From Elusimicrobiota bacterium (GTDB lineage: Bacteria; Elusimicrobiota; Elusimicrobia; UBA1565; UBA9628): a stretch of 64,000 nt of DNA. The stretch lies in contig JACRDQ010000030.1 in assembly GCA_016218545.1 (NCBI GenBank), forward strand, positions 256,172 to 320,171, in the 5' to 3' direction. Each line of letters starts with the position of its first letter. Position 1 is the first letter of the stretch. Of this stretch, positions 1,322-49,192 are shown in pieces. The notes under the pieces were generated by a model, which searched no databases, was not told where the DNA came from, and saw only the letters and a program-made list of their open reading frames with translations. Both the position numbers and the translations under genes were made by a program.

Positions 1322-2798
1322 CGAAGACCGAGGCGCCTTCCGCGTCGTCGCGGAAGACCGGGGCTCCCAGGCTGGACTCAGCCCAGGCCCCGATGAGGGC
1401 TCCCATGTCCCTTGCCCCGGCCGGCACGAAGCCTCCGGGCAGGAAGGAGTGCTCCACGTGGATATGGGTGACTCCAGCCTGGCGCGAGGTCTCGACCCAT
1501 TCCCGCGGTCCGGAAGAGCCGAGCGGCGGGGGGAGGCACTGTCGTCCGGTCAGGAGCATCACCGTGTTGAACTTGAGGCTTTCGACGACCGCGTCCGGAG
1601 GGCTGTTGAGGCGGACCCACTCCATGGTCCGGGCCTGATAGGAGGCCGGCCTGGTCAGGGACGCTGACACCAGCCTTGCGTCCTGCCGGAGCGCGGCCAG
1701 GGCCAGGAGTGCCAGCGCGGCCCGGCCCAACCAGGCCTGTGCCGGCCGGTCCGAGGGGGAGAGGGACCCGATCGCGGAGGCCGCGAAGAGCCAGACCAAG
1801 GGCGCGAGGGGGATGACGTAGCGGGAGTCCTCGGGGCTCCAGGTCAAGTGCAGGACCAGGACCAGGACGGTGTAGGCGGCCATGGCGAAGACCAGGGGCG
1901 TCTCCTCCCTGGAGCTCGTCATGAGGCGCCCTGCGCCCCACGCAGCGCAGCTCGCCAGGGCCAGACCCGCGGCCAAGACCAGCCAGCCCGGAGCCTGGGC
2001 GCCGGCCAGCCCGTCTCCGAAGAAGGAGGCGATGACGGCCAGGGCGTGGCTTCCCTGCGCCCCGGGTTCGCCGAGCAGGGCGACTTGGCTGCGCCAGTTC
2101 ACGGCGTATCCGGTCGAGACCCCGGCCGCGAGCTTGTTGCGCAGGAGCCAGAGGCCAAGGGGCGCCAGGCTCGAGAGGAGGAACGCGCCCTGGCGCCTGC
2201 GGCCGGGAGTGGCGAGGGCTCCTGCGGCCAGGGCCAGGCACAGGAGGCCGCCGTGCGGACGGATGAGACCCGCCCAAGCAGCCGCGGCCCACGCGCAGCC
2301 GGTCAGGGCCCAGGAGCCGGACCGGGTCCCCAGGTCCAGGGCCATGAGCGTCAAGGCCAGGTAGGGGATGTCCGGGAGCACGAGCCCGGAGTGGCGCACG
2401 AAGACGGGAGAGAGCGCGGTCAGGCCGGCCGCTGCCAGGGGCCACGGGGCCGGCAGGAGCCTCCAGCCCAGCCGCCAGGTGAAGAAGACGGCCAGGACCA
2501 TGGCGGCCAGCGGCACGCCGCGCAGGAGGCCCCACCGCGGCTCCGCCAGCCAGACCGGGCCCAGGAGCAGCGCCGCGTAGCCTGGCAGCGGGTCGCTGAC
2601 GGGCACGCCCTGGGCGTCGGGAAGGGCGAAGCCTCCGTGCCGCAGGGAGCGGGCGAGCAGGACCTGGACCGAGTCGTCCTCGATGAGCCCCACGGGGTTG
2701 CCTTTCGAGGCCGCGAGATGAAGGCAGAGCAGCGCGGCTGCGGCCGGCAGGATGAGGCGCGTTCTCACGGCCCGGGCTCCTCTGCGGAAAGCGCGCAC
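1287..2798 (-). CDS. Polytopic membrane protein of the GT-C glycosyltransferase type (family 39/83-like, ArnT/PMT_2-like)
   Basis: A 503-aa hydrophobic protein. Its N-terminus LIEDDSVQVLLARSLRHGGFAL..DPLPGYAALLLGPVWL is paralogous to the next gene upstream. Confidence 0.5.
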   Translation of the reverse strand: MRAFRRGARAVRTRLILPAAAALLCLHLAASKGNPVGLIEDDSVQVLLARSLRHGGFALPDAQGVPVSDPLPGYAALLLGPVWLAEPRWGLLRGVPLAAMVLAVFFTWRLGWRLLPAPWPLAAAGLTALSPVFVRHSGLVLPDIPYLALTLMALDLGTRSGSWALTGCAWAAAAWAGLIRPHGGLLCLALAAGALATPGRRRQGAFLLSSLAPLGLWLLRNKLAAGVSTGYAVNWRSQVALLGEPGAQGSHALAVIASFFGDGLAGAQAPGWLVLAAGLALASCAAWGAGRLMTSSREETPLVFAMAAYTVLVLVLHLTWSPEDSRYVIPLAPLVWLFAASAIGSLSPSDRPAQAWLGRAALALLALAALRQDARLVSASLTRPASYQARTMEWVRLNSPPDAVVESLKFNTVMLLTGRQCLPPPLGSSGPREWVETSRQAGVTHIHVEHSFLPGGFVPAGARDMGALIGAWAESSLGAPVFRDDAEGASVFAIPSAGAPRTR

Positions 2799-4393
2799 GC
2801 CAGGCTCGGCTCGAGCTCGAGCGCGGCCTTGAGCCTGCGGCGGAGGATCTTGGACGACGCGCCTGAGGCGGGGTCGCGGGCATGGAGGCAGGCCGTGTAG
2901 GCCTCGAAGTAGCGGCCGGGAGCCGGGTGGTGGATGCGGAACACGGCCGTGCCTTCCCTCGGGTTCGCATAGAGCTCGGAGGCATAGGGCGTCTGGCGAG
3001 CCCAGGACTCCAGGGTGGGGAGCTTGAGGTACGGCAGTGAAGGGTAGGCGAACTCTCCGGACAGAAGGCCCCTGGAGACATGCAGGTGGGTGACCCCGCG
3101 CGCCAGGGCGGAGGCGAGCCAGGCGTGCCGGTCGTAGACGGTCAAACCCGGCGGGACCGTGCGCCGTCCCGTGAAGAGCTCCACGGTGTGGAAGGCCAGG
3201 CTCTCCACGCGCGCTTCAGCCGGGAGGTTCTCGGCCAGCCAGGCCATGGTCTCCGGCTCGAAGGCCGGCCGCGGGCCCAGCCCCCTAGCCGCAAAGCCCA
3301 GGTCATGGCGCAGGAGGGCTGCGGAGAAGGCCAGCAGCAGGAGGCCGGCGGCCAGGGGTCTGCGCTCCAGCCAGATCCTCAGTGAGGCCATGATGAGGAT
3401 GACGACGAACGGGAGCAGGGCGATGAGATACCTGGCCTCCTTCAGGGGCCAGGTGGAGTGCATGGCGAGCACGAAGATGACGTAGGTCGCCATGGCCGCG
3501 GCCGGGACGCCTTCGCTGCCCCGCGCCAGGCGCACCGAGCCGTGAGCGACGAGGGCCAGGCATCCCAGCCCGGCCGCGGCGCTCAGGGCCTCCGGGCCCG
3601 TGACCCCGGCCAGGCCCTGGCCGAAGAGCGCGCCCAGGAGCCCAAGGACATGTCCGGCCTGCTGGAGCGGGTCGGCGAACAGGAAGGACTGGGACTTCCA
3701 GTTCGCGACGAAGCCGGTGACCGTGTCTCCTGCGAGGAGGTTGCGGAGCATCCAGCCCGCCAGGGGGAGGAAGGCTCCGGCCAGGAAGGCAAGTCCGCGG
3801 CCCCACCCCAGCCTCAGCCACACGGCCATGCCCAGGCTCAGGCCGAGGATGCTGCCCTGGGGCCTGGTCAGGCACCCTAGAGCGGCGGCCAAGGACAGGG
3901 CCGGCAGGGCCCAAGCAGGACTTCCGGGAGCCAGGGCCGCGGCTCCGAGGAAGAGGGCCAGGGACAGGGCGAGATAGGGGATGTCCGCGATCACGAGCCC
4001 GTCGAGGCCCACCAGCACGGGGTTGAGGGCCACGACTAGGGCCGCGGCCAGGGCCCAGCCCGGGGAGAGGAAGCGCAAGGCCAGGCGCCAGGTCAGCCAG
4101 ACCGAGAGCAGGGCGAAGGCGACGATCATGGGCTGGAGCAGGTGCCAGCGAGGCTCGACCAGCCAGGACGGGATGAGGAGCAGGGCCGCAAACCCCGGCA
4201 GGGGATCGGTCACGGCGGCGCCGTCCGCCAAGGCGAAGGCGCCGGTCCTCAGGGACTTGGAGAGGAGGATGAAGAAGGCGTCGTCGTTGAACGCTCCCAC
4301 GGCGAAGCGCCGGGCCGCGAGCAGGTGGAGGCCTGCCAGGGCCAGGCAGGCAGGCGCCAAGAGCCATGCCATGGGGAACGCTCGTCTCTTCAT
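2765..4393 (-). CDS. Tandem paralog of the 1287-2798 gene (GT-C glycosyltransferase-like membrane protein)
   Basis: The N-terminus AFNDDAFFILLSKSLRTGAFALADGAAVTDPLPGFAALLLIPSWLVEPRW is clearly homologous to 1287-2798. The two genes overlap by 34 nt. Confidence 0.5.
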   Translation of the reverse strand: MKRRAFPMAWLLAPACLALAGLHLLAARRFAVGAFNDDAFFILLSKSLRTGAFALADGAAVTDPLPGFAALLLIPSWLVEPRWHLLQPMIVAFALLSVWLTWRLALRFLSPGWALAAALVVALNPVLVGLDGLVIADIPYLALSLALFLGAAALAPGSPAWALPALSLAAALGCLTRPQGSILGLSLGMAVWLRLGWGRGLAFLAGAFLPLAGWMLRNLLAGDTVTGFVANWKSQSFLFADPLQQAGHVLGLLGALFGQGLAGVTGPEALSAAAGLGCLALVAHGSVRLARGSEGVPAAAMATYVIFVLAMHSTWPLKEARYLIALLPFVVILIMASLRIWLERRPLAAGLLLLAFSAALLRHDLGFAARGLGPRPAFEPETMAWLAENLPAEARVESLAFHTVELFTGRRTVPPGLTVYDRHAWLASALARGVTHLHVSRGLLSGEFAYPSLPYLKLPTLESWARQTPYASELYANPREGTAVFRIHHPAPGRYFEAYTACLHARDPASGASSKILRRRLKAALELEPSLACALSAEEPGP

Positions 4394-5157: not shown

Positions 5158-6405
5158 TCAGGCGCCATAGCGGCCGACGAGCTCCTCTTTCGTCTTGCCC
5201 AGGATCCCGTGCTTCCTGCCGACCTTGACGAAGGCCTCCAGCGCGCGGTCGAGGTGGCTCGTCTCGTGGCCGGCCGAGATCTGCGTGCGGATGCGGGCCG
5301 TGCCCGGCGGCACCACGGGGTAGAAGAACCCCACGGCGTAGACGCCCTCGTCGAAGAGGTCCCGGGAGAAGTCCTGGGAGAGCTTGGCGTTGAAGAGCAT
5401 GACCGGCACGATGGGGGTGTCGCCCTCCTTGAGGATGAACCCGGCCTCGGCGAGGCCCTTGCGCCAGTAGGCGGCGTTCCTCTCGAGCTTGTCGCGCCGC
5501 TCCGTGCTCTGGGTCAGCATGTCCAGGACCCGCAGGACCCCGGCGACGACGACCGGCGCGATGGTGTTGGAGAAGAGGTAGGGCCGCGCGCGCTGGCGGC
5601 ACATCTCCACGAGCTCCCGGCGGCCGGAGACGCAGCCGCCCGAGGCGCCGCCCAGGGCCTTGCCGAAGGTCGTGGTGATGAGGTCGACCTTGCCCCGGAC
5701 CCCGTACTTCTCCGGCGTGCCCCGGCCGGTCCTGCCGATGAACCCGGTCGCGTGGGAGTCGTCTACGAAGAGCAGCGCCCCATGAGCCTCGCAGAGGCGC
5801 TCCAGCTCGTCGAGCGGCGCGCAGTCGCCGTCCATGGAGAAGACGCCGTCCGTGATGACGACCTTGAGCCTCCTGCCCGCGTGCTTCTCGAGCAGGGAGG
5901 CCAGGTGCGCCATGTCGCAGTGCTGGTAGATGTCGCGCTGGGCCTTGCAGAGCCGGACGCCGTCGATGATGGAGGCGTGGACGAGCCGGTCCGAGATCAT
6001 GACGTCGCGCTCGCCGAGGACGGCCTCGAAGACGCCGGCGTTGGCGTCCATGCAGGAGGGGAAGAGGATGGTGTCCTCGGTGCCCAGGAACTCGGTCATG
6101 CGGGCCTCGAGCTCCTTGTGGATGTCCTGCGTGCCGCAGATGAAGCGCACGGAGGACATGCCGTAGCCGCGGGCGTCCAGGCCCGCGTGCGCCGCCTTGA
6201 CGACCTCGGGGTGGCTGGAGAACCCGAGGTAGTTGTTGGCGCACATGTTGATGACCTTCCTGGGAGAGGCGCCCGCCGGGAACTCCACTTCGATGTCCGC
6301 GGCCTGGGGGGAGCGGATGAAGCGCTCGGCCTTGAAGAGCCCGGAAGCCCTGATGCCCTCGAGCTCCTTCTGGAATCCCTGACGAACCGTCTCGGTGAAA
6401 GCCAT
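5158..6405 (-). CDS. kbl: Glycine C-acetyltransferase (2-amino-3-ketobutyrate CoA ligase), a PLP-dependent enzyme
   Basis: From MAFTETVRQG it aligns end to end with E. coli Kbl, including SVRFICGTQDIHKELE, SDRLVHASIIDGVRLCKA, DGVFSMDGD, TFGKALGGASGG and FFYPVVPPGTARIRTQISAGH. No tdh gene lies next to it. Confidence 0.85.
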   Translation of the reverse strand: MAFTETVRQGFQKELEGIRASGLFKAERFIRSPQAADIEVEFPAGASPRKVINMCANNYLGFSSHPEVVKAAHAGLDARGYGMSSVRFICGTQDIHKELEARMTEFLGTEDTILFPSCMDANAGVFEAVLGERDVMISDRLVHASIIDGVRLCKAQRDIYQHCDMAHLASLLEKHAGRRLKVVITDGVFSMDGDCAPLDELERLCEAHGALLFVDDSHATGFIGRTGRGTPEKYGVRGKVDLITTTFGKALGGASGGCVSGRRELVEMCRQRARPYLFSNTIAPVVVAGVLRVLDMLTQSTERRDKLERNAAYWRKGLAEAGFILKEGDTPIVPVMLFNAKLSQDFSRDLFDEGVYAVGFFYPVVPPGTARIRTQISAGHETSHLDRALEAFVKVGRKHGILGKTKEELVGRYGA

Positions 6406-38536: not shown

Positions 38537-40666
38537 TCAGCGCGCGATGCGGAAGCCCACGCGCGAGTCGCCGCTCGACATGCCCTCGCGGTGCGTGGTG
38601 GTGGCCTTGGAAGCGCCGTAGCGCCAGACCCCGCCGCGGATCATCGTGGAACTGCCCGACGTGGTCCAGGCTCCGGCGTTCGAGGGCGCCCCGCTGTACG
38701 TGTCGTGGAAGAGGTCCTCGACCCACTCGTAGACGTTGCCCGCCATGTCGCAGACCCCGTGGACCGTCACGTCCCTCTTGGAGCAGGGCGGCCAGGGCAC
38801 GTTCCTGCCGCAGCCGTCACCCGCCACGTCCGTGACCGCGTGATCGCAGGTGAGGGCCTCGTTCCCCCAGGGGTACTTCCAGTCCTTCCCGCCCCCGCGG
38901 GCGGCGTATTCCCACTCGGCCTCGGAGGGCAGGCGGCCGCCCGCCCACCGGGCGAAGGCCTGGGCCTGGTCCTGGTTGATGCACACGACCGGGAGCTCGT
39001 CCTGCATGAATTGGCTCAGCGTGGCCGCCCCGAACACGGTGCAGGAGGCGTTGGTCGGGGTGCAGGCCCCGGCTCCGACGCACTCCTTGTACTGCCCCAG
39101 GGTGACCTCGGTCTTGGAGAGCTGGAACGAGGGCACGGTGACCATGTGGACCGGCTTCTCGGTGCCGTCGTCGTTGGAGCCCATCATGAACGTCCCGCCC
39201 GGAATCGGGACCCACACGATCCCGCTCCTGCCCTTGACGGGCGCGGACTTGAGCGCCTCCGGCGGGACCGTGCCCGCCGGCAGAAGGGGGGCCAGCTCCG
39301 AGAGGAAGGGGTTGTCCTCGCTCGTGCGGCCGTAGGCCTGGACGAACATCATGGCCCAGCGCTTCTTGTCCTTGTCCGGGATGACGGAGAGGCTCAGCAG
39401 CCTGCGGAGCTTGCTCCAGTCCTTGTCCCGGGCCTCGGCGCGGCGCGCGCGCGCCTCCTCGGCCGCCTTCTTGGCCTCGGAGAACTTCTTCCACTCCTCG
39501 GCGCGGCGGTTGGCTTTGTCGGCGAACTGCGGGCTCGACTGCGCCAGGGCCAGCCACCGGGCGGCCTTGTCCTCGGCCGAGGCCTCGCCCTTGTCGAAGG
39601 CGATGGCCGCGTCGTACTTCTCCAGGGCGTCCACGTCGAGGTCGCGCCAGTCCGCGGTGTCCGCGTCGGAGGCGAGGGCCTCGGGCGCCGAGACCGCGGG
39701 CACCGTGGGCAGCTCGCTGATCTGGAACATCTCCGCGGTGGAGCGGCCCGCGGACTCCTTGGCGAGGACCGACAGGTCCGGGCCGGCCTCGCCGGCCGAG
39801 GTCCCGAAGACGGCGGCGGTCTTGCCGGTGAGCTCCGGGGTCTGCTCGCGGCCCCTGAGGGTCGCGCGCAGGGCCTCGTCCGCGAAGCTGAAGATCTCGC
39901 CGGCCGTCACCTTGCCGTCGTGGTCGGAGTCGGCCCAGCCGCGCAGCGCTCCGAGGAGCAGGTAGCTGAAGGCGGGCCTCTTGGCTCCGGGGAGGGGGCC
40001 GGCGAACTGGTTGCCCTTGGCCGCGGTGAGCACCACGAAGCGCGCGTCCTGCGGAGGGGTGAGCGCGGCCAGGACCAGGGGCTGGAGGCCCTCCACCAGG
40101 GCGCCGGCCTCGGTCCTGCCTGAGAAGCACGCGTCGATGACGACGTTCACCTGGCTCGCCTTGGTCGAGCCGAGCAGGCGCAGGACCTCTCCCCTGGGGA
40201 GGCTCCGGGCGTAGAGGCTGGCGGCCTTCTGCTGGGCGTCCACGCCCACGAGGACCCCGTCCTTGGCGTCCTGGCCGGGGGCTCCGTGGCCGATGAAGAC
40301 GAACCAGAGGGTCCCTCCCTGCGCGGCGCGCACGGCGCTCTCGACCGCGGCCTGGCGGATCTCCTCGACGGTCCCGTCCGACTCGAGGAGGAGGCGGATG
40401 TTGGCGGGCTTGAGCCCCCGGGTCTTGGTGAGGTAGTCGTACCAGGCCCGGGCGTTGTCTCCGGCCCCTTTGACCGGGGACACGAACGCGTAGCGCTCGA
40501 TGCCCACGATGACCGCGGCGTCGCTCTCTCCACCGCCGATGGAGGCGGCGGGCTTGCCGAGGTCCGGCCAGGAGACCTTCGCCCACGCCTCCGGCGCGGC
40601 GCAGAGCGCGGCGGCGGCGAGCAGCAAGGTCGCGCGGATCACGCGGGGGCGGAAGGTCTTGTCCAT
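38537..40666 (-). CDS. Secreted fusion protein: N-terminal caspase-like peptidase C14 domain plus C-terminal FGE-sulfatase (SUMF1/formylglycine-generating enzyme-like) domain
   Basis: A signal peptide. IGHGAPG..VVIDACFSG is the caspase His/Cys dyad context. The C-terminus has GGTFMMGSNDDG..RLPSEAEWEYAARGG..GNVYEWVED..RGGVWRYG..RVGFRIAR. AGGAG SD before the ATG at 40666. Confidence 0.75.
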   Translation of the reverse strand: MDKTFRPRVIRATLLLAAAALCAAPEAWAKVSWPDLGKPAASIGGGESDAAVIVGIERYAFVSPVKGAGDNARAWYDYLTKTRGLKPANIRLLLESDGTVEEIRQAAVESAVRAAQGGTLWFVFIGHGAPGQDAKDGVLVGVDAQQKAASLYARSLPRGEVLRLLGSTKASQVNVVIDACFSGRTEAGALVEGLQPLVLAALTPPQDARFVVLTAAKGNQFAGPLPGAKRPAFSYLLLGALRGWADSDHDGKVTAGEIFSFADEALRATLRGREQTPELTGKTAAVFGTSAGEAGPDLSVLAKESAGRSTAEMFQISELPTVPAVSAPEALASDADTADWRDLDVDALEKYDAAIAFDKGEASAEDKAARWLALAQSSPQFADKANRRAEEWKKFSEAKKAAEEARARRAEARDKDWSKLRRLLSLSVIPDKDKKRWAMMFVQAYGRTSEDNPFLSELAPLLPAGTVPPEALKSAPVKGRSGIVWVPIPGGTFMMGSNDDGTEKPVHMVTVPSFQLSKTEVTLGQYKECVGAGACTPTNASCTVFGAATLSQFMQDELPVVCINQDQAQAFARWAGGRLPSEAEWEYAARGGGKDWKYPWGNEALTCDHAVTDVAGDGCGRNVPWPPCSKRDVTVHGVCDMAGNVYEWVEDLFHDTYSGAPSNAGAWTTSGSSTMIRGGVWRYGASKATTTHREGMSSGDSRVGFRIAR

Positions 40667-40742
40667 GGGGGCTCCTTGTCCGACCCTCTCATTATAGGAG
40701 CGAGAGGAGGGTCCCGTCAATGACGCCGGACACGTCCGGGGG

Positions 40743-40833: not shown

Positions 40834-41133
40834 TCATTCCTTGATGACGAGGTTGTCGACCACCTGCTCGACGCCCCGCGCGTCCTTGGCCGCGCGGCGG
40901 ATGGCCTCTTTCTGTTCCCAGGTGTCCACGAGGCCGGAGAGGGTCACGATCCGGGCGTGCACGTCGATGCTGACGGTGCCGGGCTTGACGCCCCGCTGGC
41001 TGGCCAGGACGCTCTCGATGTTGGCGAGGATGCCGGGGTCCGAGATGTCCGCGTCCCCGGCAGCGGGCATGCCGACGCAGGCGCACAGGCCTGCCAGGCC
41101 GGCGGCCGCGAGCAGGCGGAGGAGAACGCTCAC
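40834..41133 (-). CDS. BON-domain (OsmY-like) lipoprotein
   Basis: Signal peptide and lipobox. HARIVTLSGLVDTWEQKEAIRRAAKDARGVEQVVDNLVI is a BON domain. Confidence 0.7.
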   Translation of the reverse strand: MSVLLRLLAAAGLAGLCACVGMPAAGDADISDPGILANIESVLASQRGVKPGTVSIDVHARIVTLSGLVDTWEQKEAIRRAAKDARGVEQVVDNLVIKE

Positions 41134-41198: not shown

Positions 41199-43493
41199 AT
41201 GACGATGAGGATCCTGCTGGCCACCCGGAACCGCCACAAGGCGCGGGAGCTCGCGGCCATGACCGCGGGCAGCGGCGTCGCGTTCGCCCTGCTCGACGAG
41301 TTCCCAGCGTTCCCCGAGACCGTCGAGGACCTCCCCACCGTGGAGGGCAACGCCTCCAAGAAGGCCCGTGAGGCGGCGCTGCGCCTCAAGATGTGGACCT
41401 TGGCCGACGACACGGGGCTCGAGGTCGAGGCGCTCGGCGGGGCTCCCGGCGTCAGAGCCGCGCGCTTCGCGGGCCCGGGCTGCACCTACGCGGACAACAA
41501 CGCCAAGCTCCTCGCCTCCCTCCGGGGGGTGGAAGGTCCGCGCCGCAAGGCGGTCTTCCGCACGGTCATGGCCTTGAGCGATCCGGAGGGCAGGGTCACG
41601 CTCGAGGAGGGCAGGCTCCCCGGCTCCATCGCGTCCGGACCCAGGGGTTCGGCCGGCTTCGGCTACGACCCGCTCTTCCTCGTGGAGGACACGGGCCGGA
41701 CCCTGGCGGAGCTCTCCGACGAGGAGAAGAACCGGGTGAGCCACCGGCGGCGCGCCATGGAGAGGATGCTCCCTCACCTGGCGCGCGTCGCGGCCCTGGG
41801 GCTGGCGCTCCTCTGCTCCTGGACCGCCCCTGCCGCGGCGGGGCGGACCGAGCCGGGGCAGGAGACGATCTGGGACCAGATCATGGCGACCCAGGCCAAC
41901 CGCGGGATGCGGGCCGGGACCCGGCACATGGACGCGCAGCAGTATGACCTGGCCGAGGCCGAGTTCGCCAAGGCCGTGCACTCCAGCCCCAACGACGCCA
42001 ACGCCCACATGCTCCTGGGCGCCGCCTACTACTGGCGCGGCAAGGTGGACATGGCTCTCGGGGAGTTCCGCAAGGCCATCGAGCTCGACGACCGCAACGC
42101 CCAGGCCTGGATGCTCCTGGGCATCGCCATGGCCTGGAAGGGGGAGGCCCTGCCCGCGTACGAGGCGTTCCGCAAGGCGGGCGAGCTCGACGGCGCGCGC
42201 GCCGACATCCAGATGAACATGGGCTCGATCCTGGAGACCATGGGGCGCAACCAGGAGGCCCTCGGCCACTTCCGCAAGGCCGTGAACCTCGAGCCCACGC
42301 ACCCGCTCTACCATTTCCAGCTGGGCATGCTTTACCGGAGGCTCGGCCGCGACGGGGACGCCATCGAGTGCATGAAGGACGCCCTCAAGCTCTACCCGCA
42401 GTACGAGGACGCCCTCCTCGAGTTGGGGGCCGCCGAGGAGCGGCTGGGCCAGGACAAGGCCGCGTCGCACAGCTTCCGGAAGGCCGTCTCCCTCAAGTCG
42501 AAGGACGCGGTCGCCCGGTTCCGGCTGGGCAGACTCCTGCTGCGCGCCGGACAGCGGGCCGAGGCGCGGTCCGTCTTCTCCGACGCCTTCCACCTCACCC
42601 CCGAGGGCGAGGGGGGCGGCCTTCAGCTCTCGGTGGCCTATACCGGGGGCAAGAAGAAGCTCGCGGCCGGGGGCGGCGGGGGCTCCCCCTCGGGCTCCCA
42701 GCCGCCCGGGGAGCCTCCGCCTGCCGACGACCCGCTCTCCGTCTTCGCGCGCAACCTCGAGCGCATCCCGCTCGAGCAGGGCGCGGTCATGAACGTGGAC
42801 GTCGCCATGGTCCCCAAGCCCAAGCTCACCAAGGCCGACGACATCGAGAGCCGCGCTTCTCTCAAGCGCGCCCTGGAGAAGGGGATGAAGCCCGAGCGCT
42901 CCTCCATGAAGCTGGTGCGGCGGGAGTACGACCTGCCCGCGGGGCCGGAGTCGGCCCGGCAGGCCCAGATCAAGAAGATCCTCAACGACCTCTCCGACGT
43001 GGTCAAGAGCGCGCCTCCGGACTCGGACGTGCGCCTGGGCATGAACCTGACCTACAAGCGCCTCACCGACGCCGGGGCCCGGCGCGGGGCGGCCGAGAGC
43101 GCGGCCAAGGTCTCCTTCCAGCCCCGGGAGGTCGGCAACGACATGGGGCTCTGGGTCATCGGCACGGGCTGGATGACCCTCGTCGAGGAGATGCTGCCCG
43201 AGGCCGGGGCCGAGCTCCCGCGGAGCGACGACTCGGACTGGTGGGTGGCCCTGGGCCTGGGCTACGCCACCCTCGGCGACGGCCAGCGCGCCATGACGGC
43301 CTTCGAGCACGCGCTCCGGCACGACGCCCGGCATGAGGTCGCCCTGCTCGGTCGGGGCGTGGCCGCGGTCATGACCGGAGACGAGGCTCGGGCCCTGGCC
43401 GACTACCGCCGGGTCCTCCAGCTCAACCCGGCCAACCGCGCCGCGGCCGAGGGGCTCAAGTGGCTCCTGCGGCCTGTCAGGAGGAAGCAGTGA
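41199..43493 (+). CDS. In-frame fusion: RdgB/Ham1 non-canonical NTP pyrophosphatase domain, then a hydrophobic segment, then a TPR-repeat domain
   Basis: N-terminus MRILLATRNRHKARE..FGYDPLF is RdgB. From MERMLPHLARVAALGLALLCSWTAPAAA a signal-peptide-like segment precedes multiple TPRs. No stop separates the two parts. Confidence 0.6.
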   Translation: MTMRILLATRNRHKARELAAMTAGSGVAFALLDEFPAFPETVEDLPTVEGNASKKAREAALRLKMWTLADDTGLEVEALGGAPGVRAARFAGPGCTYADNNAKLLASLRGVEGPRRKAVFRTVMALSDPEGRVTLEEGRLPGSIASGPRGSAGFGYDPLFLVEDTGRTLAELSDEEKNRVSHRRRAMERMLPHLARVAALGLALLCSWTAPAAAGRTEPGQETIWDQIMATQANRGMRAGTRHMDAQQYDLAEAEFAKAVHSSPNDANAHMLLGAAYYWRGKVDMALGEFRKAIELDDRNAQAWMLLGIAMAWKGEALPAYEAFRKAGELDGARADIQMNMGSILETMGRNQEALGHFRKAVNLEPTHPLYHFQLGMLYRRLGRDGDAIECMKDALKLYPQYEDALLELGAAEERLGQDKAASHSFRKAVSLKSKDAVARFRLGRLLLRAGQRAEARSVFSDAFHLTPEGEGGGLQLSVAYTGGKKKLAAGGGGGSPSGSQPPGEPPPADDPLSVFARNLERIPLEQGAVMNVDVAMVPKPKLTKADDIESRASLKRALEKGMKPERSSMKLVRREYDLPAGPESARQAQIKKILNDLSDVVKSAPPDSDVRLGMNLTYKRLTDAGARRGAAESAAKVSFQPREVGNDMGLWVIGTGWMTLVEEMLPEAGAELPRSDDSDWWVALGLGYATLGDGQRAMTAFEHALRHDARHEVALLGRGVAAVMTGDEARALADYRRVLQLNPANRAAAEGLKWLLRPVRRKQ

Positions 43494-43528
43494 GGGTCTT
43501 CAGGAAAGGCGCCGAGCTTCCCGGCAAC

Positions 43529-44899
43529 ATGGGTTCCTTCATCCGGCGCGTCCACTTCGTGGGCATCGGCGGGGTCGGGATGAGCGGCATCGCCGAGGTC
43601 CTGCGCAACCTGGGCTACGAGGTCTCCGGCTCGGACCTCAAGGAAACGGAGGTGACCCGCCGGCTCGCCGGGCTGGGCGTCACGGTGCGTCTGGGCCACG
43701 CCGCGTCCCACATCCGGGGCGCCGAGGTGGTGGTCGTCAGCTCCGCCGTGGGCCCGGACAACCCGGAGGTGGCCGCGGCCCGGGAGCAGGGCATCCCGGT
43801 CGTCCAGCGGGCCCTGATGCTCGCCGAGCTCGGCCGCATGAAGAAGACGGTCACCGTGGCCGGGAGCCACGGCAAGACCACCACCACCTCCATGGTCGCC
43901 ATGGCCCTGCGTTCCGCCGGGGCGGACCCGACCATGGTCGTGGGCGGGCAGATCAAGGACATCCGCTCCAACGCCCGCCTGGGCGTGGGCGACTACCTCG
44001 TGGCCGAGGCCGACGAGTCCGACGGGTCCTTCCTGCACCTCTCGCCCTTGGTGGCCGTGGTGACCAACGTGGACGACGACCACCTCGACTTCCACAAGAC
44101 CGTCGAGCGGCTCCGGGAGGCCTTCGCCGAGCATCTGCGCCGGCTCCCCTTCTACGGCGCCGCGGTGCTGTGCGCGGACGACCCTCCCCTCATGGCCCTG
44201 GCTCGCGGCCTCGACCGCCGCGTCATCACCTACGGCTTCGCGAAGTCCGCCCAGTGGCGGGCCGCGGACCTCAAGCTCGCGAGCGCGGGGAGTTCCTTCT
44301 CCGTGCTCTGCCGGGGCCGCCGCCTGGGGACGCTGCGCATGCGGGTGCCGGGAAGGCACAACGTGCTCAACGCCCTGGGCGCCCTGGCGGCCGGGAGCTT
44401 CCTGGGCCTGCCGTTCCGGCGCCTGGCCGCGGGGCTTGCGGAGTTCCGCGGCGTGGGCCGCCGCCTCGACGTCCTCGGCTCGGCCTCGGGCATCGTGTTC
44501 GTGGACGACTACGGCCACCACCCCACGGAGATCGCCGCCACCCTCGACGCCCTGCGCCTCTGGAAGGGCCGGCGCGTGGTGGTCTTCCAGCCGCACCGCT
44601 ACTCCCGGACCAAGCTCCTTGCCCGCCGCTTCGGACCCGCCTTCAAGGCCGCGGACCTCGTCTACGTCATGGACATCTACGCGGCCGGCGAGAAGCCCAT
44701 GCCCGGCGTGACCTCGAGGCTCATCCTCGACTCCCTGCGCCGGGCCCGGGTGCGCTGCGCCCCCTTCGTCTCGGCCCTGGACACCGCGCGCGAGCTGGCG
44801 GCGGGCGACGTCGTCTTGACCCTGGGGGCCGGAGACGTCTGGAAGATCGGCGAGGACCTCCTGCGGCGCAGCCGCAGCCGGTTCACCAGCCCGGTCTGA
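43529..44899 (+). CDS. murC: UDP-N-acetylmuramate--L-alanine ligase
   Basis: VHFVGIGGVGMSGIA, GSHGKTTTTSM, Mur ligase middle and C-terminal domains. Confidence 0.9.
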   Translation: MGSFIRRVHFVGIGGVGMSGIAEVLRNLGYEVSGSDLKETEVTRRLAGLGVTVRLGHAASHIRGAEVVVVSSAVGPDNPEVAAAREQGIPVVQRALMLAELGRMKKTVTVAGSHGKTTTTSMVAMALRSAGADPTMVVGGQIKDIRSNARLGVGDYLVAEADESDGSFLHLSPLVAVVTNVDDDHLDFHKTVERLREAFAEHLRRLPFYGAAVLCADDPPLMALARGLDRRVITYGFAKSAQWRAADLKLASAGSSFSVLCRGRRLGTLRMRVPGRHNVLNALGALAAGSFLGLPFRRLAAGLAEFRGVGRRLDVLGSASGIVFVDDYGHHPTEIAATLDALRLWKGRRVVVFQPHRYSRTKLLARRFGPAFKAADLVYVMDIYAAGEKPMPGVTSRLILDSLRRARVRCAPFVSALDTARELAAGDVVLTLGAGDVWKIGEDLLRRSRSRFTSPV

Positions 44900-44905
44900 C
44901 GGCCC

Positions 44906-45685
44906 ATGGGAGCCAGGCTCGGCCAGCATTTCCTCAAGGACCCGGTCGTGCGCGGCCGCATCCTCGCCGCGGCGCGCATCCAGCGGGGGGACTCGGTCGT
45001 GGAGATCGGCCCTGGCCGCGGGTTCCTGACCCGGGAGCTCCTGCGCCTCTCGGACCTGACCGCGGTGGAGATGGACGAGCGCCTGGCCGAGTCCCTGCGC
45101 CTGGAGTTGGGCGCGGAGAGCGGCCTGCGCCTCATCGCCTCCGACTTCCTCAAGGTCGAGCCCGCGGCCCTGGGCAGGCCTCCGCTCAAGTTCGTGGCGA
45201 ACCTCCCCTACTCGGTCGCCACGCCTATCCTGCAGAGGATCCTCTCCTGGGACTGCTGGAGCTCCGCGGTGCTCATGTTCCAGAAGGAGGTCGCCCTGCG
45301 CATCACGGCCGGGCCGGGCAGCCGCGACTACGGGCTCCTCACCCTGTCTGCGGCGATCAAGGCCGAGGCCGAGCTCGTGGCCGCGGCCCCTGCCGAGTCC
45401 TTCTCTCCCAAGCCCAAGGTGGAGTCCGCGGTGGTGCTCCTCAGGCGCAGGGCCGCGCCGCTGGTGAGGCCCGAGCGGGAGGACGGCTTCTTCCGCGTGG
45501 CGCGCGCCGCCTTCAGCCAGCGGCGCAAGACCGTCCTCCATCCCCTGTGCGGGGGCCTGGGCATCGGCCGGGAAACCGCCCTGGCCGCGCTCGAGCGCTG
45601 CGGCATCCCGTCCCGGGCCCGGGCCGAGGAGATCCCGCTCGAGGGCTTCCTTAAGCTGGCCGACATCCTGGGCCGACCCGGCTGA
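44906..45685 (+). CDS. rsmA: 16S rRNA (adenine1518/1519-N6)-dimethyltransferase
   Basis: LGQHFLKD, VVEIGPGRGFLT and NLPYSV motifs. Confidence 0.85.
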   Translation: MGARLGQHFLKDPVVRGRILAAARIQRGDSVVEIGPGRGFLTRELLRLSDLTAVEMDERLAESLRLELGAESGLRLIASDFLKVEPAALGRPPLKFVANLPYSVATPILQRILSWDCWSSAVLMFQKEVALRITAGPGSRDYGLLTLSAAIKAEAELVAAAPAESFSPKPKVESAVVLLRRRAAPLVRPEREDGFFRVARAAFSQRRKTVLHPLCGGLGIGRETALAALERCGIPSRARAEEIPLEGFLKLADILGRPG

Positions 45686-45725: not shown

Positions 45726-47462
45726 ATGGGCTTCCTCATCAGGGCGGAGTTCCCGGGCAAGCCGCCGGTCACCAAGGAGCTCGTCGAGGGCGGCCACCTC
45801 GTGCTCGGCCGCGCCAAGCAAGCCACCTTCAGGATCCCGGAGGACCTCGAGATGAGCCGCCTCCACGCCGAGGTCCTCGTGGACAACGGCCTGCTCGTGG
45901 TCCGGCGGAACCCCGAGTCCACCAACCCCGTGTTCCGCGACGGCCGCCCCATGGACGAGTTCGGCCTGGCTCCGGGGGAGAGCTTCCTCATCGGCAAGAC
46001 CAAGTTCACCTTCCTCATCCTCGACGCTCCGGCCGGGGCCGCTCCCGAGGCCGTGGCTCAGTCCCCGGCGGCAAAGAAGCCCTCCGGAGGGGGCGGCGCG
46101 GCCCCGGAGCACGTCGAGCTCCTGACCATGTCCGCCAAGGACCTCTACGCCATGGGCGACCCGGCGGGGAGGCTCAAGTACTCGCATCTCCTCGAGATCC
46201 CGGAGATCCTGCGCAAGCGCGACCGCAAGGACTCCTTCGCCCGCATCGCGGCCGTGCTCCGGGACTCCACGGACGGCGTCTTCGCGTGCGTCGTCACCGA
46301 GGAGGGCGGCGTGCTCGGCGAGGACCGCTCTGCCGGGGCGGTCCGGTACCAGCCGAGCAAGACCCTCATCCGGAAGGCCTGCGCCGAGGCCCCTCAGCCC
46401 ACGGTCTACTCGTGGTCCCAGCCCGCGGGAGAGGTCGCGACGCGGCAGGCCGGGCTCGACTGGGCCGTGTGCGCCGCGGCCCGCATCCCGCACGAGCCCT
46501 CCGTGGTCTTCTACGTGGCCGGGTCCCAGTCCTCGGCGGGCTCGGAGTCCCTCCAGCGCGAGCGCGCCCGTTTCGTGGGGCTCATCGCGGACATGGTCGG
46601 CCGGAGCATGGCCATGGACCGGCTGACCACCTGGGAGGGGCGCCTGGAGCGCTTCTTCGCCGGCCCGGTGGTGAACAAGATCCTGTCCTCGCCGGATCTC
46701 GGGGACATCGAGCCCAGGCTCGCGGTGAGCACCGTGATGTTCTTCGACATCCGCGGCTTCTCCAAGCGCACCGAGGAGAAGAACGAGGACATCCTCCAGT
46801 ACATCGGTGAGCTCCGGCGCGCCATGACGGCCATGACCGCCGTCATCCTCGAGGAGCAGGGCGTGGTGCTCCAGTACATGGGGGACGGCATCCTCGCCTG
46901 CTGGAACGTCCCGTTCCAGGACCTCTCGCACGTGGACCTGGCCTGCCGGGCGAGCCTTCGCATGGCGGAGGCCTTCTCCCGCCAGACCGGCGGCTGGCGC
47001 TGCGGCATCGGGCTCCACTCCGGGGAGGTCGTGGCCGGAGCCATCGGCTCGGAGCAGGTCTTCTCCTACGGGCTGCTGGGCGCCACCGTGAACCAGGCCT
47101 CCCGCGTGGAGGGCATCACCAAGGCCCTCGGCGTCGGGATCCTGGCCACCGAGGACGTGGCCTCCAAGGTCTCCCCTTCCGTGGCCATGCCCGTGCCCGT
47201 GGGACGCTTCCGGCCGGCCGGGATGTCGTCCGCCATCGACCTCTTCGAGCTCACCCCGGCTCCGGGCGACTCCAGGCGCAGGGAAGCGTTCCAGGGAGGG
47301 GTGGCCGCGCTCAAGAGCGGCGACTTCGCCGCCGCGAGCCTGGCCTTCGGCGCCCTGCCTGCCGAGGACAAGCCCGCGGCCTATCTGCGGTCCCTGGCGG
47401 ACAAGCTCTCCAGGACCCCTCCGCGCGATTGGGACGGGGTCATCGAACTCTCCCAAAAATGA
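45726..47462 (+). CDS. FHA-domain protein fused to a class III adenylate/guanylate cyclase catalytic domain
   Basis: FHA: LVLGRAKQATFRIPEDLEMSRLHAEV..NPVFRDG. Cyclase: VMFFDIRGFSKRTE..YMGDGILACW..GLHSGEVVAGAIGSE..YGLLGATVNQASRVEG. Confidence 0.8.
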   Translation: MGFLIRAEFPGKPPVTKELVEGGHLVLGRAKQATFRIPEDLEMSRLHAEVLVDNGLLVVRRNPESTNPVFRDGRPMDEFGLAPGESFLIGKTKFTFLILDAPAGAAPEAVAQSPAAKKPSGGGGAAPEHVELLTMSAKDLYAMGDPAGRLKYSHLLEIPEILRKRDRKDSFARIAAVLRDSTDGVFACVVTEEGGVLGEDRSAGAVRYQPSKTLIRKACAEAPQPTVYSWSQPAGEVATRQAGLDWAVCAAARIPHEPSVVFYVAGSQSSAGSESLQRERARFVGLIADMVGRSMAMDRLTTWEGRLERFFAGPVVNKILSSPDLGDIEPRLAVSTVMFFDIRGFSKRTEEKNEDILQYIGELRRAMTAMTAVILEEQGVVLQYMGDGILACWNVPFQDLSHVDLACRASLRMAEAFSRQTGGWRCGIGLHSGEVVAGAIGSEQVFSYGLLGATVNQASRVEGITKALGVGILATEDVASKVSPSVAMPVPVGRFRPAGMSSAIDLFELTPAPGDSRRREAFQGGVAALKSGDFAAASLAFGALPAEDKPAAYLRSLADKLSRTPPRDWDGVIELSQK

Positions 47463-49192
47463 CGACGGCGCCCGTCGCGGCCCTGCGCTCGAGGACACTC
47501 CGGCTCGGCCTCGTCCTCTCTTGCGCGGCCCTGCTCCCCGCTCCCTGCTCCGCCGGGTGCGACCAGGGCTCCTACGACGCGGCGTACGCCGCCTGCAACG
47601 CCGATCCCCCGGGGCCCCAGTGCGCCCCGGTCTACAACGAGATGCGCTCCGCCTGCGAGAGCGACCTCCAGAAGGCGATCGCGGCCGTGGACAAGTCCAA
47701 GCCCGCGGATAGGGACGCTGCGGTCGAGGCATTGAGCGACCTCCGCATGAAGATCTACTACGACATGGGCGGGTTCAAGAGCTACGGGATCCTGGGAAGC
47801 TCCGGCAAGCACATCACGGTCGGGGGAGAGAGCTTCAACACTTATGCGAACGAGGCGTGGGAACGCGCGGAGAAGACCTTCGACGATCACGGCTACGAGG
47901 TCTCCGATGACGGCGAGATCCTGGCCGGGCCCGGGGACGGCGAAGAGGCCGGCGACCCTGCCGCGGACCAGAAGCCCGGCGCCGCCGGCAAGCCTCGGTC
48001 CGGGGCGCAGGGTGAGGCCCAGCCGCGGAAGGAGCGGGTCGAGGCTCTGCTCGACCAAGGCAAGGCCGCGGAAGCCGAGGACCTGCTCGACGAGCTCCTG
48101 CAAGACGACCCGGAGAACCCGGAGCTCCTCGCCATGAGGTCCGTGGCCAGGCTCAACCAGGAGGACAAGTCGGGCGCTCTCTCGGATGCCAAGGCCTCCC
48201 TGAAGTCCGACCCTGAGAACAAGACCGCCCAGGAGGTGAAGGATTTCATCGAGCTCACGGGCAGAGCGGCCGGGGTGAGCCTCAAGCTCAAGGGGCCCAA
48301 GTGGGAGTCCAAGGACATGGGCTCCAGGTTCGACGGGAGCGGCGGGGACGGGGCGGCCGGAGCCGGCGGCAAGCTCATGGCCGGCGGAGGCTGGCGGAGC
48401 GGCGGCCCGAGCCGGGCCTCGGGCGGAGGCTACGACGCGGTGGACGCCGGCGGGTCAGGCTGGTCCGCCACGGGGAGCGGTCCCGGAGCAGGGGCCTATG
48501 CCCCGGGCGCGCAGGCCACCCTGCCCATGTCCCAGGGCCTGACCGGCTCGCAGGTGCTCGTGCGCGAGGCGCGCAAGAAGCTCAGGCTCGGGGACCTGAG
48601 CGGCGCCTTCCTCGAAGCCGCCCGCGCCCTGCAGGCCGACGCCAGGAACCCCGCGGCCTGGACCACGCGCGCCGCGGTGTCGAACAAGCTCAAGAACTTC
48701 GACGCCGCCATCGGCGACGCGACCGAGGCTTTGAAGCTCGAGCCCAAGAACGTGCCCGCCATGCTCGAGCGGGGCTACGCGCAGTACAACATGGGGAACC
48801 TCACGGCCGCGCTCGAGGACATCGGCTCAGCCATCAAGATCGAGCCCATGAACGCCCTGGCCTACCTCTACCGGGGCATGATCTTCGAGAAGATGACCCG
48901 CTACACCGAGGCCCTCGCGGATTACGAGACCGCGGCCCGCCTGGACCCCACGCTCCGACAGTTCTGGGAGGATGCCAAGACCCGCCTCCTGGGCGGCGGC
49001 AAGGGCAAGGGCAAGACCGGCCCAGGGGCGCGGAGGCCCGGCCGCGGGCTCTTCTGGCTCATCCCCTCGGGCCTCTCCCTGCTCATCCTCGTCATCTTCA
49101 TCCGCAGGAGGCTCAAGGAACGTGCGCAGCCGGCGGCGGAACCCGAGCCTCCGGCCGGGGCCGAGCCCGGCCAGCCCAAAGACGAGTCCTGA
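47459..49192 (+). CDS. Membrane-anchored TPR protein with a signal peptide, Cys-rich N-module, TPRs and a C-terminal TM helix (paralog 1 of 3)
   Basis: The ATG overlaps the cyclase stop (ATGA). C-terminal TM LFWLIPSGLSLLILVIFIRRR. Confidence 0.7.
   Translation: MTTAPVAALRSRTLRLGLVLSCAALLPAPCSAGCDQGSYDAAYAACNADPPGPQCAPVYNEMRSACESDLQKAIAAVDKSKPADRDAAVEALSDLRMKIYYDMGGFKSYGILGSSGKHITVGGESFNTYANEAWERAEKTFDDHGYEVSDDGEILAGPGDGEEAGDPAADQKPGAAGKPRSGAQGEAQPRKERVEALLDQGKAAEAEDLLDELLQDDPENPELLAMRSVARLNQEDKSGALSDAKASLKSDPENKTAQEVKDFIELTGRAAGVSLKLKGPKWESKDMGSRFDGSGGDGAAGAGGKLMAGGGWRSGGPSRASGGGYDAVDAGGSGWSATGSGPGAGAYAPGAQATLPMSQGLTGSQVLVREARKKLRLGDLSGAFLEAARALQADARNPAAWTTRAAVSNKLKNFDAAIGDATEALKLEPKNVPAMLERGYAQYNMGNLTAALEDIGSAIKIEPMNALAYLYRGMIFEKMTRYTEALADYETAARLDPTLRQFWEDAKTRLLGGGKGKGKTGPGARRPGRGLFWLIPSGLSLLILVIFIRRRLKERAQPAAEPEPPAGAEPGQPKDES

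Follow-up and report, generated by a model that had tools for sequence, protein, structure and literature searches.

In-Frame Fusion of RdgB to a TPR Protein in Elusimicrobiota, with a Predicted Internal Signal Peptide at the Junction

The Fused Gene and Its Conservation

The gene described here lies in a 64,000-nt stretch of DNA from an Elusimicrobiota bacterium (GCA_016218545.1, contig JACRDQ010000030.1, positions 256,172 to 320,171 of the forward strand; hereafter the window), and it joins the coding sequence of an RdgB/Ham1 dITP/XTP pyrophosphatase in frame to that of a tetratricopeptide repeat (TPR) protein. The in-frame fusion of RdgB and the TPR protein is genuine and evolutionarily conserved. 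The segment between the two halves is predicted, from its conservation, to be the Sec signal peptide of the TPR protein, with the last helix of RdgB serving as its n-region. The whole chain is probably a polyprotein-like precursor, which would be cut between A214 and G215 into a membrane-proximal RdgB and a periplasmic TPR protein.

The open reading frame (ORF) runs uninterrupted from 41199 to 43493, exactly as the initial annotation had claimed; it lies on the plus strand and encodes 764 aa, with a TGA stop codon at 43491..43493. It comprises an intact RdgB/Ham1 (aa 3–196), a hydrophobic segment (aa 197–214) and a TPR-containing protein of about 550 aa; the domain content named in that annotation is also matched by Pfam, with Ham1p_like at aa 5–191 (E 9e-57) and TPR families at about aa 230–470 and 716–757. 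The true start of the gene is likely the second ATG, at 41205, because GGAAG lies 6 nt upstream of it and the NCBI protein that is 100% identical to the fused ORF (P0001, from an Elusimicrobia metagenome-assembled genome (MAG)) is annotated with 762 aa. The GC content at third codon positions (GC3) is 0.92–0.97 in the RdgB, junction, middle and C-terminal segments alike, and therefore a single coding frame spans the junction.

In a homolog search covering 5.8 billion proteins, more than 115 protein clusters carried the same fusion (52–82% identity, 99–100% coverage, 740–810 aa, PF01725 plus TPR), and their source names, where given, were all Elusimicrobia or Elusimicrobiota. A scan of species-representative Elusimicrobiota genomes returned 77 loci, two of which (L001 and L006) are one contig, JACRDT010000027; 69 were classifiable, with the two genes fused in frame in 53 and separate in 16. 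Many unrelated projects, on groundwater, soil, peat and lake samples among others, contributed the fused loci, and the nearest fused relatives of the window (L003–L005) have the same in-frame junction at an RdgB identity of 74–80%. The breadth of these finds, over 115 clusters plus 53 species-representative loci drawn from many independent assemblies, bears out the earlier suggestion of a genuine and very unusual fusion.

In the split loci, rdgB is immediately upstream of the TPR gene in 14 of 16 cases, mostly with a 4-nt ATGA or GTGA overlap in a different frame, and in L050 and L070 the distance between them is 1.1 kb and 3.7 kb, respectively. All 16 split loci encode a TPR protein that starts from a Met of its own and an N-terminal signal peptide, for example the classical signal peptide MRSPLLLTLVASVLLGFPSPVRA followed, after the cut, by DRTVPGEE. 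The TPR-only proteins P0059 and P0045 are close relatives of the window protein and have the neighbourhood BON (minus strand), rdgB, TPR, murC; the RdgB encoded beside them is 198–199 aa long and ends shortly past the last helix. Therefore, the idea that two genes were joined by loss of a stop holds as evolutionary history, as the outgroups and the 16 split loci indicate, but not as a recent accident or error. A stop codon after the RdgB domain, which the initial annotation would have taken as refutation, was indeed found in orthologs of some species; it does not refute the fusion, because the fused and the split states are both real and interconvert.

Some individual orthologs deserve mention. 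In two split loci (L017 3800–3932 and L043 2998–3154), RdgB carries a zinc-ribbon-like CxxC...CxxC tail at its C-terminus (...CPRCGLAMDPWHCRELCPGCGYQIDCSD, followed by the stop), and the start of the TPR gene directly abuts the rdgB stop codon; the C-terminus of RdgB seems to be a fusion hotspot within the clade. In the complete long-read genome CP096137.1 (L071), the fused ORF terminates about 90 aa into the TPR part, and in JAPLKK010000085.1 (L057), RdgB is spread across two frames and a stop interrupts the TPR N-terminus. Both orthologs could be pseudogenes, or could reflect long-read or assembly indels.

The RdgB Half

The RdgB/Ham1 dITP/XTP pyrophosphatase domain (aa 3–196; 41205..41786, plus strand) is identified by PF01725, by alignment to structures in the PDB and by its motifs, and it has a confidence score (predicted local distance difference test, pLDDT) of about 90 in an AlphaFold2 (AF2) model of the fused protein, which was built with 63 homologs as input and has a mean pLDDT of 82. 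The PF01725 match reaches 192.4 bits, where the cut-off is 22.5, and covers aa 5–191, that is, profile positions 1–184 of 186. The equivalog cut-offs of NCBIfam are narrowly missed (TIGR00042, 141.5 against 145.35; PRK14822, which covers aa 4–196, 199.8 against 234), so that the RdgB/Ham1 assignment is made at domain level only. The dITP/XTP pyrophosphatase 6wwd aligns over aa 3–201 (E 5e-38) and E. coli RdgB 1k7k over aa 3–194, and the T/S-x-N-x-x-K, E, K, DD(S/T)GL, FGYDP and SHR motifs align to both. T9, N11, K14, E43, K54/K55, D70-D71, FGYDP and SHR are invariant or nearly so among 118 fused homologs, and therefore the enzyme half is under selection. At domain level it is an ordinary RdgB, predicted to be an intact dITP/XTP pyrophosphatase.

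The last helix of the RdgB fold, R183–R196 (RRRAMERMLPHLAR; 41745..41786, plus strand), has a double role, as shown by the 6wwd alignment and by its charge: it is also the putative positively charged n-region of the signal peptide. The natural C-terminus of 6wwd, SHRGRALAALLPMLRNLVNLG, aligns over SHRRRAMERMLPHLARVAALG of the fused ORF, and the hydrophobic stretch joins the last RdgB helix directly, without a linker.

The Junction Segment as a Predicted Internal Signal Peptide

The peptide MERMLPHLARVAALGLALLCSWTAPAAA, which had been singled out in the initial annotation as a possible secretion signal or transmembrane helix, corresponds to aa 187–214 of the fused ORF. By the usual tripartite description, a Sec signal peptide has a basic n-region, a hydrophobic h-region of 7–15 aa and a polar c-region, and all three can be recognised here. 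The net charge of the n-region is +2 to +5 in 115 homologs. The h-region in the window is V197–T209 (VAALGLALLCSWT; 41787..41825, plus strand), an uncharged core of 13 aa; such a core measures 8–17 aa in 114 of 115 homologs, with a median of 13 and one outlier computed as 1. The c-region is about 5 aa long with Pro at −4 and carries, in A210-P-A-A-A214 (41826..41840, plus strand), an AxA motif for signal peptidase I with conserved −1 and −3 positions.

The fused proteins have retained the cleavage signature, apparently under selection. A passage of PMC3509430 gives small neutral residues at −1 and −3 as the AxA rule of signal-peptidase I substrates. In the window these residues belong to A212-A213-A214, and in 117 homologs position −1 is A in 114, G in 2 and S in 1, while position −3 is A in 74, V in 20, S in 19, C in 2, L in 1 and G in 1 (A, V or S in 113 of 117). 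Pro is found at −4 in most of these homologs and at +1 in none. Unlike the AxA positions, the core sequence of the h-region is free to vary. The predicted cut of signal peptidase I thus falls between A214 (41838–41840) and G215 (41841–41843), and the AF2 model has a single continuous helix at aa 182–207 followed by a disordered stretch at 209–222 around this site.

The segment is read as a signal peptide because the homologous segment in the split orthologs serves a separate TPR protein as its N-terminal signal peptide. An N-terminal position, as in the 16 split orthologs, is not what the window has, where the signal peptide starts at about residue 183–197. Of the two possibilities raised for this segment, then, the secretion signal is upheld by the core of 8–17 aa, the conserved AxA and the signal peptide of the split orthologs, and the transmembrane helix is not: a signal-anchor or type II transmembrane span requires at least about 19 residues, the h-region has a maximum of 17 aa, and AxA is conserved. 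The 13-residue core is therefore too short for a stable transmembrane anchor.

Two other export signals were considered and rejected. A twin-arginine translocation (Tat) signal, which would show S/T-R-R-x-F-L-K next to the h-region, does not fit the n-region consensus RALRxILPxL(K/R), in which inspection of the 120-sequence junction alignment found no RR-x-F-L-K beside the h-region. A lipoprotein signal (signal peptidase II) does not fit either, as there is no conserved Cys at +1 and no L-[AS]-[GA]-C lipobox; Cys204 of the window protein is not conserved.

Internal Initiation

The initial annotation had proposed an internal start at 41758 that would produce a separate secreted TPR protein. In-frame ATGs do exist there, but at 41757–41759 (M187) and 41766–41768 (M190). 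Both Met residues belong to the helix that ends the RdgB fold, because PRK14822 extends to aa 196 and 6wwd to aa 201, and they are Leu or Ile in most orthologs. In-frame codons between the SHR motif and the h-region were scanned in the 53 fused loci: an ATG is present in this zone in 24 and absent from 29, and in 12 none of the codons ATG, GTG and TTG occurs. In only 5 of the 53 loci does a Shine-Dalgarno (SD) core precede a start codon, and the window has none. The SD criterion is weak for this phylum, because only 6 of the 16 genuine split TPR starts have an SD core, and therefore the argument against internal starts rests on the absence of start codons. At least in the 12 fused loci without a start codon, the TPR protein can therefore be produced solely within the fusion. 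With a Met that is not conserved, 29 of 53 loci without ATG and 12 of 53 without any of the three start codons, the proposal of a separate secreted product from this start is not supported as a general mechanism.

Proposed Processing and Alternative Explanations

The following course of events is proposed. A small deletion or frameshift would have eliminated the rdgB stop and the TPR start of adjacent, translationally coupled genes, so that the amphipathic basic helix at the C-terminus of RdgB is now continuous with the h-region and the AxA c-region. The entire 82-kDa chain would be translated as one precursor, as suggested by the open and conserved frame. The RdgB domain would fold and remain in the cytoplasm, while the internal signal peptide would enter the Sec translocon SecYEG as a hairpin and the TPR part would be threaded across the membrane to the periplasm. 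Signal peptidase I would then cleave after Ala214 and give two products: a free periplasmic TPR protein beginning GRTEPGQ..., and an active RdgB with a hydrophobic tail of about 18 residues, which might be held at the membrane or trimmed. In function there would be no difference between the fusion and the split pair, except that the fusion would ensure 1:1 synthesis without re-initiation of the kind that the ATGA overlap needs; this is a plausible advantage of the fused state. Sequence conservation is what points to this course of targeting, export, cleavage and RdgB fate.

Several points weigh against this reading and have to be set beside it. The case for export and cleavage is built on MAG sequences. 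A literature search found no precedent for a folded soluble enzyme of about 190 aa abutting a cleavable bacterial signal peptide without a linker. No second rdgB copy was found within the 64-kb window, the only region checked. In some species, h-regions of 15–17 aa together with the c-region could serve as uncleaved anchors. Moreover, the AxA conservation could partly stem from frequent exchange with the split state and not from present cleavage.

The alternative that comes closest is an uncleaved bitopic (type II) inner-membrane protein, in which a signal-anchor tethers RdgB on the cytoplasmic side and the TPR part on the periplasmic side. The positive-inside charge and the one hydrophobic helix fit an N-in/C-out topology, AF2 leaves the helix of aa 182–207 unbroken, and the layout of cytoplasmic domain, transmembrane helix and periplasmic domain is common in bacteria (ToxR, RseA, RodZ). 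Nevertheless, this alternative is considered unlikely, for the core has only 8–17 aa (median 13) where about 19–20 aa are needed to span the membrane, about 97% of 117 diverged sequences keep to the small-residue rule at −3 and −1 amid variable neighbouring positions, a constraint that an uncleaved anchor does not need, and tethering is dispensable, since 16 species make a free TPR protein bearing a signal peptide. Much less probable is internal initiation at M187/M190 or their equivalents, by which a normal TPR precursor would be made and the full-length fusion would be a by-product: the two in-frame ATGs of the window, 28 and 25 codons before the cleavage site, and the ATGs found in the zone in 24 of 53 fused loci speak for it, but these Met positions are mostly Leu or Ile, 12 of 53 loci have no ATG, GTG or TTG, starts preceded by SD are found in only 5 of 53 and not in the window (a weak test, given 6 of 16 split starts), and RdgB has no stop of its own, hence every RdgB is full-length regardless.

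The fusion could also be an error of assembly or sequencing, or this one genome might have lost the stop recently on the way to a pseudogene: MAG assemblies can contain indels, and the related L057 and L071 look broken. Against this, the same in-frame junction is present in L003–L005 and in the 53 species-representative loci from unrelated projects, GC3 is unbroken over the junction, and both halves are under strong purifying selection. This explanation is hardly credible, and such an artefact is effectively ruled out by the conservation of the fusion in more than 115 clusters and 53 loci.

A different question is whether the fusion is adaptive, that is, a bacterial polyprotein in which a soluble enzyme is brought to the Sec translocon by the internal signal peptide of its partner. 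This appears doubtful. If it were true, signal peptidase, alone or together with signal-peptide peptidase, would release RdgB or leave it tethered to the membrane, and the benefit would be nucleotide-pool sanitation at the membrane near a murC-linked envelope operon, or strict 1:1 expression; the repeated fusion and fission would then be selection toggling between two regimes.

History of Fusion and Fission

A neighbour-joining (NJ) tree of the TPR part was built from 63 loci and rooted on the most distant, L070. It gave a split root and a minimum of 10 changes between fused and split; in 100 bootstraps the minimum was 9, 10 and 11 in 3, 75 and 22 replicates, respectively. Split species are nested within fused clades at 95–100% support, as in the group of the window and L003–L005 (fused) with L002 and L006 (split). 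The DNA alignments hold the corresponding traces: the fused L062 is missing about 41–47 nt that include the SD (GGGAGG) and the GTGA overlap of its split sisters L065 and L067, and the split L042 has a palindromic insert of about 110 nt compared with its fused sister L040. The fused and split states therefore interconvert easily, as is to be expected if both give the same mature products.

The L042 insert (about 3430–3580 of JAKFCD010000137.1) resembles a repetitive extragenic palindromic (REP) or miniature inverted-repeat transposable element (MITE), GAACCACAAAGACACAAAGGCACAAAGAACGGA...TCCGTTCTTTGTGTCTTTGTGTCTTTGTGGTTC, and separates rdgB from the TPR gene; its 3′ arm, translated as ...SVLCVFVSLWF, is the signal-peptide core, and a related insert is found in L039. 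The arm-derived peptide CV[FS]VSL[WC]F forms the h-region in the fused L030, L034 and P0053/P0060/P0063/P0081/P0113, and these h-regions suggest an insertion followed by partial deletion and re-fusion. In L002 (Logan SRR3656953_253, 5930–6001), a double stop TGATGA is followed by a 46-nt spacer between rdgB and the TPR gene, and the spacer harbours a hairpin, CGCGTCAAAGAACCC...GGGTTCTTTGACGCG, with its first arm extending over the 3′ end of rdgB; the hairpin may be a terminator, an attenuator or a repeat remnant.

The TPR Half and Its Relatives

The mature TPR protein, predicted to be periplasmic, corresponds to aa 215–764 (41841..43490, plus strand) by full-length homology to unfused proteins. 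In the window its N-terminus begins G-R-TEPGQETIWDQIMA, and (K/R)TEPGQETIWDQIMA is nearly invariant among homologs; the first residues of the mature protein are expected to be GRTEPGQETIWDQ, with GRTEPGQETIWDQIMATQANR as the matching semi-tryptic peptide. The initial annotation had assigned about 550 aa to TPR repeats. TPR are present, and the multiple 34-aa helix-turn-helix repeats place the protein in the TPR families (PF07719, PF00515, PF13414 and related), but the half is not TPR throughout, as AF2 shows a linker and an alpha/beta domain in it. In order along the chain, all on the plus strand, are the first TPR block of aa 224–463 (41868..42587), with 14 helices or about 7 repeats, Pfam matches to TPR_1/2/8/11/16 etc. 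and a pLDDT above 90; a disordered Gly/Pro-rich linker of aa 471–501 (42609..42701), with a pLDDT below 50 and with length and sequence that vary among homologs; a conserved alpha/beta middle domain of about aa 512–619 (42732..43055), arranged as helix-strand-helix-strand-helix-strand in the AF2 model; and C-terminal TPR-type helices of aa 657–756 (43167..43466), also from the model.

Relatives of the TPR half without RdgB were sought in a library of representatives at 50% identity, where the full-length relatives are almost all unfused. These relatives of 530–600 aa match in a single stretch (query about 10–560, 30–56% identity), from their own residue 15–35 or so, and their source names, where given, are Elusimicrobia, Elusimicrobiaceae and the cultured Elusimicrobium simillimum. 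The window protein has the marks of this Elusimicrobiota family of exported TPR proteins of about 560 aa, namely the TEPGQETIWDQIM N-terminus, the alpha/beta middle domain and the C-terminal TPRs. Since unfused relatives bearing signal peptides occur across Elusimicrobiota, the TPR protein is an old exported protein of this phylum. The unfused ortholog in E. simillimum precedes ksgA and has no adjacent rdgB. At this locus (L080, JBEVVA010000003.1), phage portal and S78 prohead-protease genes lie at 2131–3937, about 2 kb upstream of the TPR ortholog, which suggests that a prophage or its remnant adjoins it.

Genomic Neighbourhood

The upstream neighbour of the fused gene is a conserved, divergent BON-domain gene (Pfam BON; 40834..41133, minus strand), found in the same place in L001 and L002. 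Downstream is murC (43460..44899, plus strand), which has Pfam Mur_ligase domains and the same order in L001 and L002, followed by ksgA/rsmA (44906–45685, Pfam RrnaAD). With its start at GTG 43460, the longest murC ORF shares 34 nt with the end of the fused gene. However, the real murC start is probably the ATG at about 43529 (MGSFIRRVHFVGIGG), because the conserved MurC N-terminus MGSFIRRVHFVGIGGVGMSG begins there, and the real intergenic gap would then be about 35 nt.

Further downstream of ksgA, an FHA-like/adenylate-guanylate cyclase protein and then a second TPR protein (587 aa) are encoded both in the window (45726–49189) and in L001 (9982–13337), and therefore synteny extends beyond the rdgB-TPR-murC-ksgA block. 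On the other side, between valS and the BON gene, the window has a gene on the minus strand (38537–40720) for a predicted secreted protein of 727 aa with a C-terminal FGE-sulfatase domain (aa 503–727); its N-terminal region looks caspase-like by eye (...FVFIGHG...VIDACFSG...). This gene is absent from the syntenic L001 and L002, and is therefore a lineage-specific insertion.

Significance and Comparison with Known Systems

Literature searches for RdgB-TPR fusions and for Elusimicrobia fusions found no description of this fusion. The public names of the proteins of about 760 aa are automatic, either "RdgB/HAM1 family..." or "RdgB/HAM1 pyrophosphatase" or "tetratricopeptide repeat protein", and localisation predictors that read the N-terminus alone will label the whole fusion cytoplasmic. 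The fusion is unusual but explicable, and has no bearing on a major open question. Should processing follow the proposed course, the fusion would give a rare natural example from bacteria in which a cleavable Sec signal peptide comes directly after a soluble cytoplasmic enzyme, and would mean that Sec targeting and signal-peptidase cleavage in vivo need no N-terminal position. The 53 fused and 16 split orthologs are a natural experiment on the passage between overlapping coupled genes and fusions, with at least 9 transitions inferred.

Compared with stand-alone RdgB/Ham1/ITPA proteins (E. coli 1k7k/2pyu; 6wwd), the window protein shares an alignment over the length of the fold, the substrate and metal motifs and the C-terminal helix SHRxxAL..LLP.L. 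The known RdgBs are soluble proteins of about 200 aa that end about 3–10 residues past this helix, whereas the window protein continues for 550 more residues. Another comparison is with the split pairs of JACRDT010000027 (L001/L006) and SRR3656953_253 (L002), which share the order BON (minus strand), rdgB, TPR, murC, with ksgA also in L001, and have RdgB and TPR identities to the window of 66–68% and 68–77%, the same mature N-terminus and the same AxA site. They differ in that the two proteins are encoded by separate ORFs that do not share a frame and either overlap by the 4 nt ATGA or are set apart by a 46-nt spacer with a hairpin; RdgB ends in a short tail and a stop, and the TPR protein starts from a Met and an n-region of its own.

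ToxR, RseA and RodZ are bitopic N-in/C-out proteins with transmembrane helices of about 20 aa and without a conserved AxA. The window fusion has the same predicted overall topology before any cleavage, and differs from them in its core of 8–17 aa and its canonical signal-peptidase I motif. In mechanism, the closest analogues are precursors with an internal signal. The FbcH cytochrome b-c1 precursor of Bradyrhizobium japonicum is said, from the work of Thony-Meyer et al., to be a polyprotein whose internal signal peptide is cut by signal peptidase, and at the flavivirus C-prM and hepatitis C virus (HCV) core-E1 junctions the cytosolic capsid or core protein keeps the signal peptide as a C-terminal tail. 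In these, as predicted for the window protein, the N-terminal part is on the cytoplasmic side, and an internal n-h-c signal with an AxA-type site exports, or in the window protein would export, the downstream part, with the cut made on the trans side. In FbcH, however, the signal is preceded by a polytopic membrane protein that belongs to the same complex, and the flavivirus and HCV cases belong to eukaryotic endoplasmic reticulum systems; the window fusion, with its predicted cleavage, has upstream a soluble housekeeping enzyme that has no known functional tie to its exported partner.

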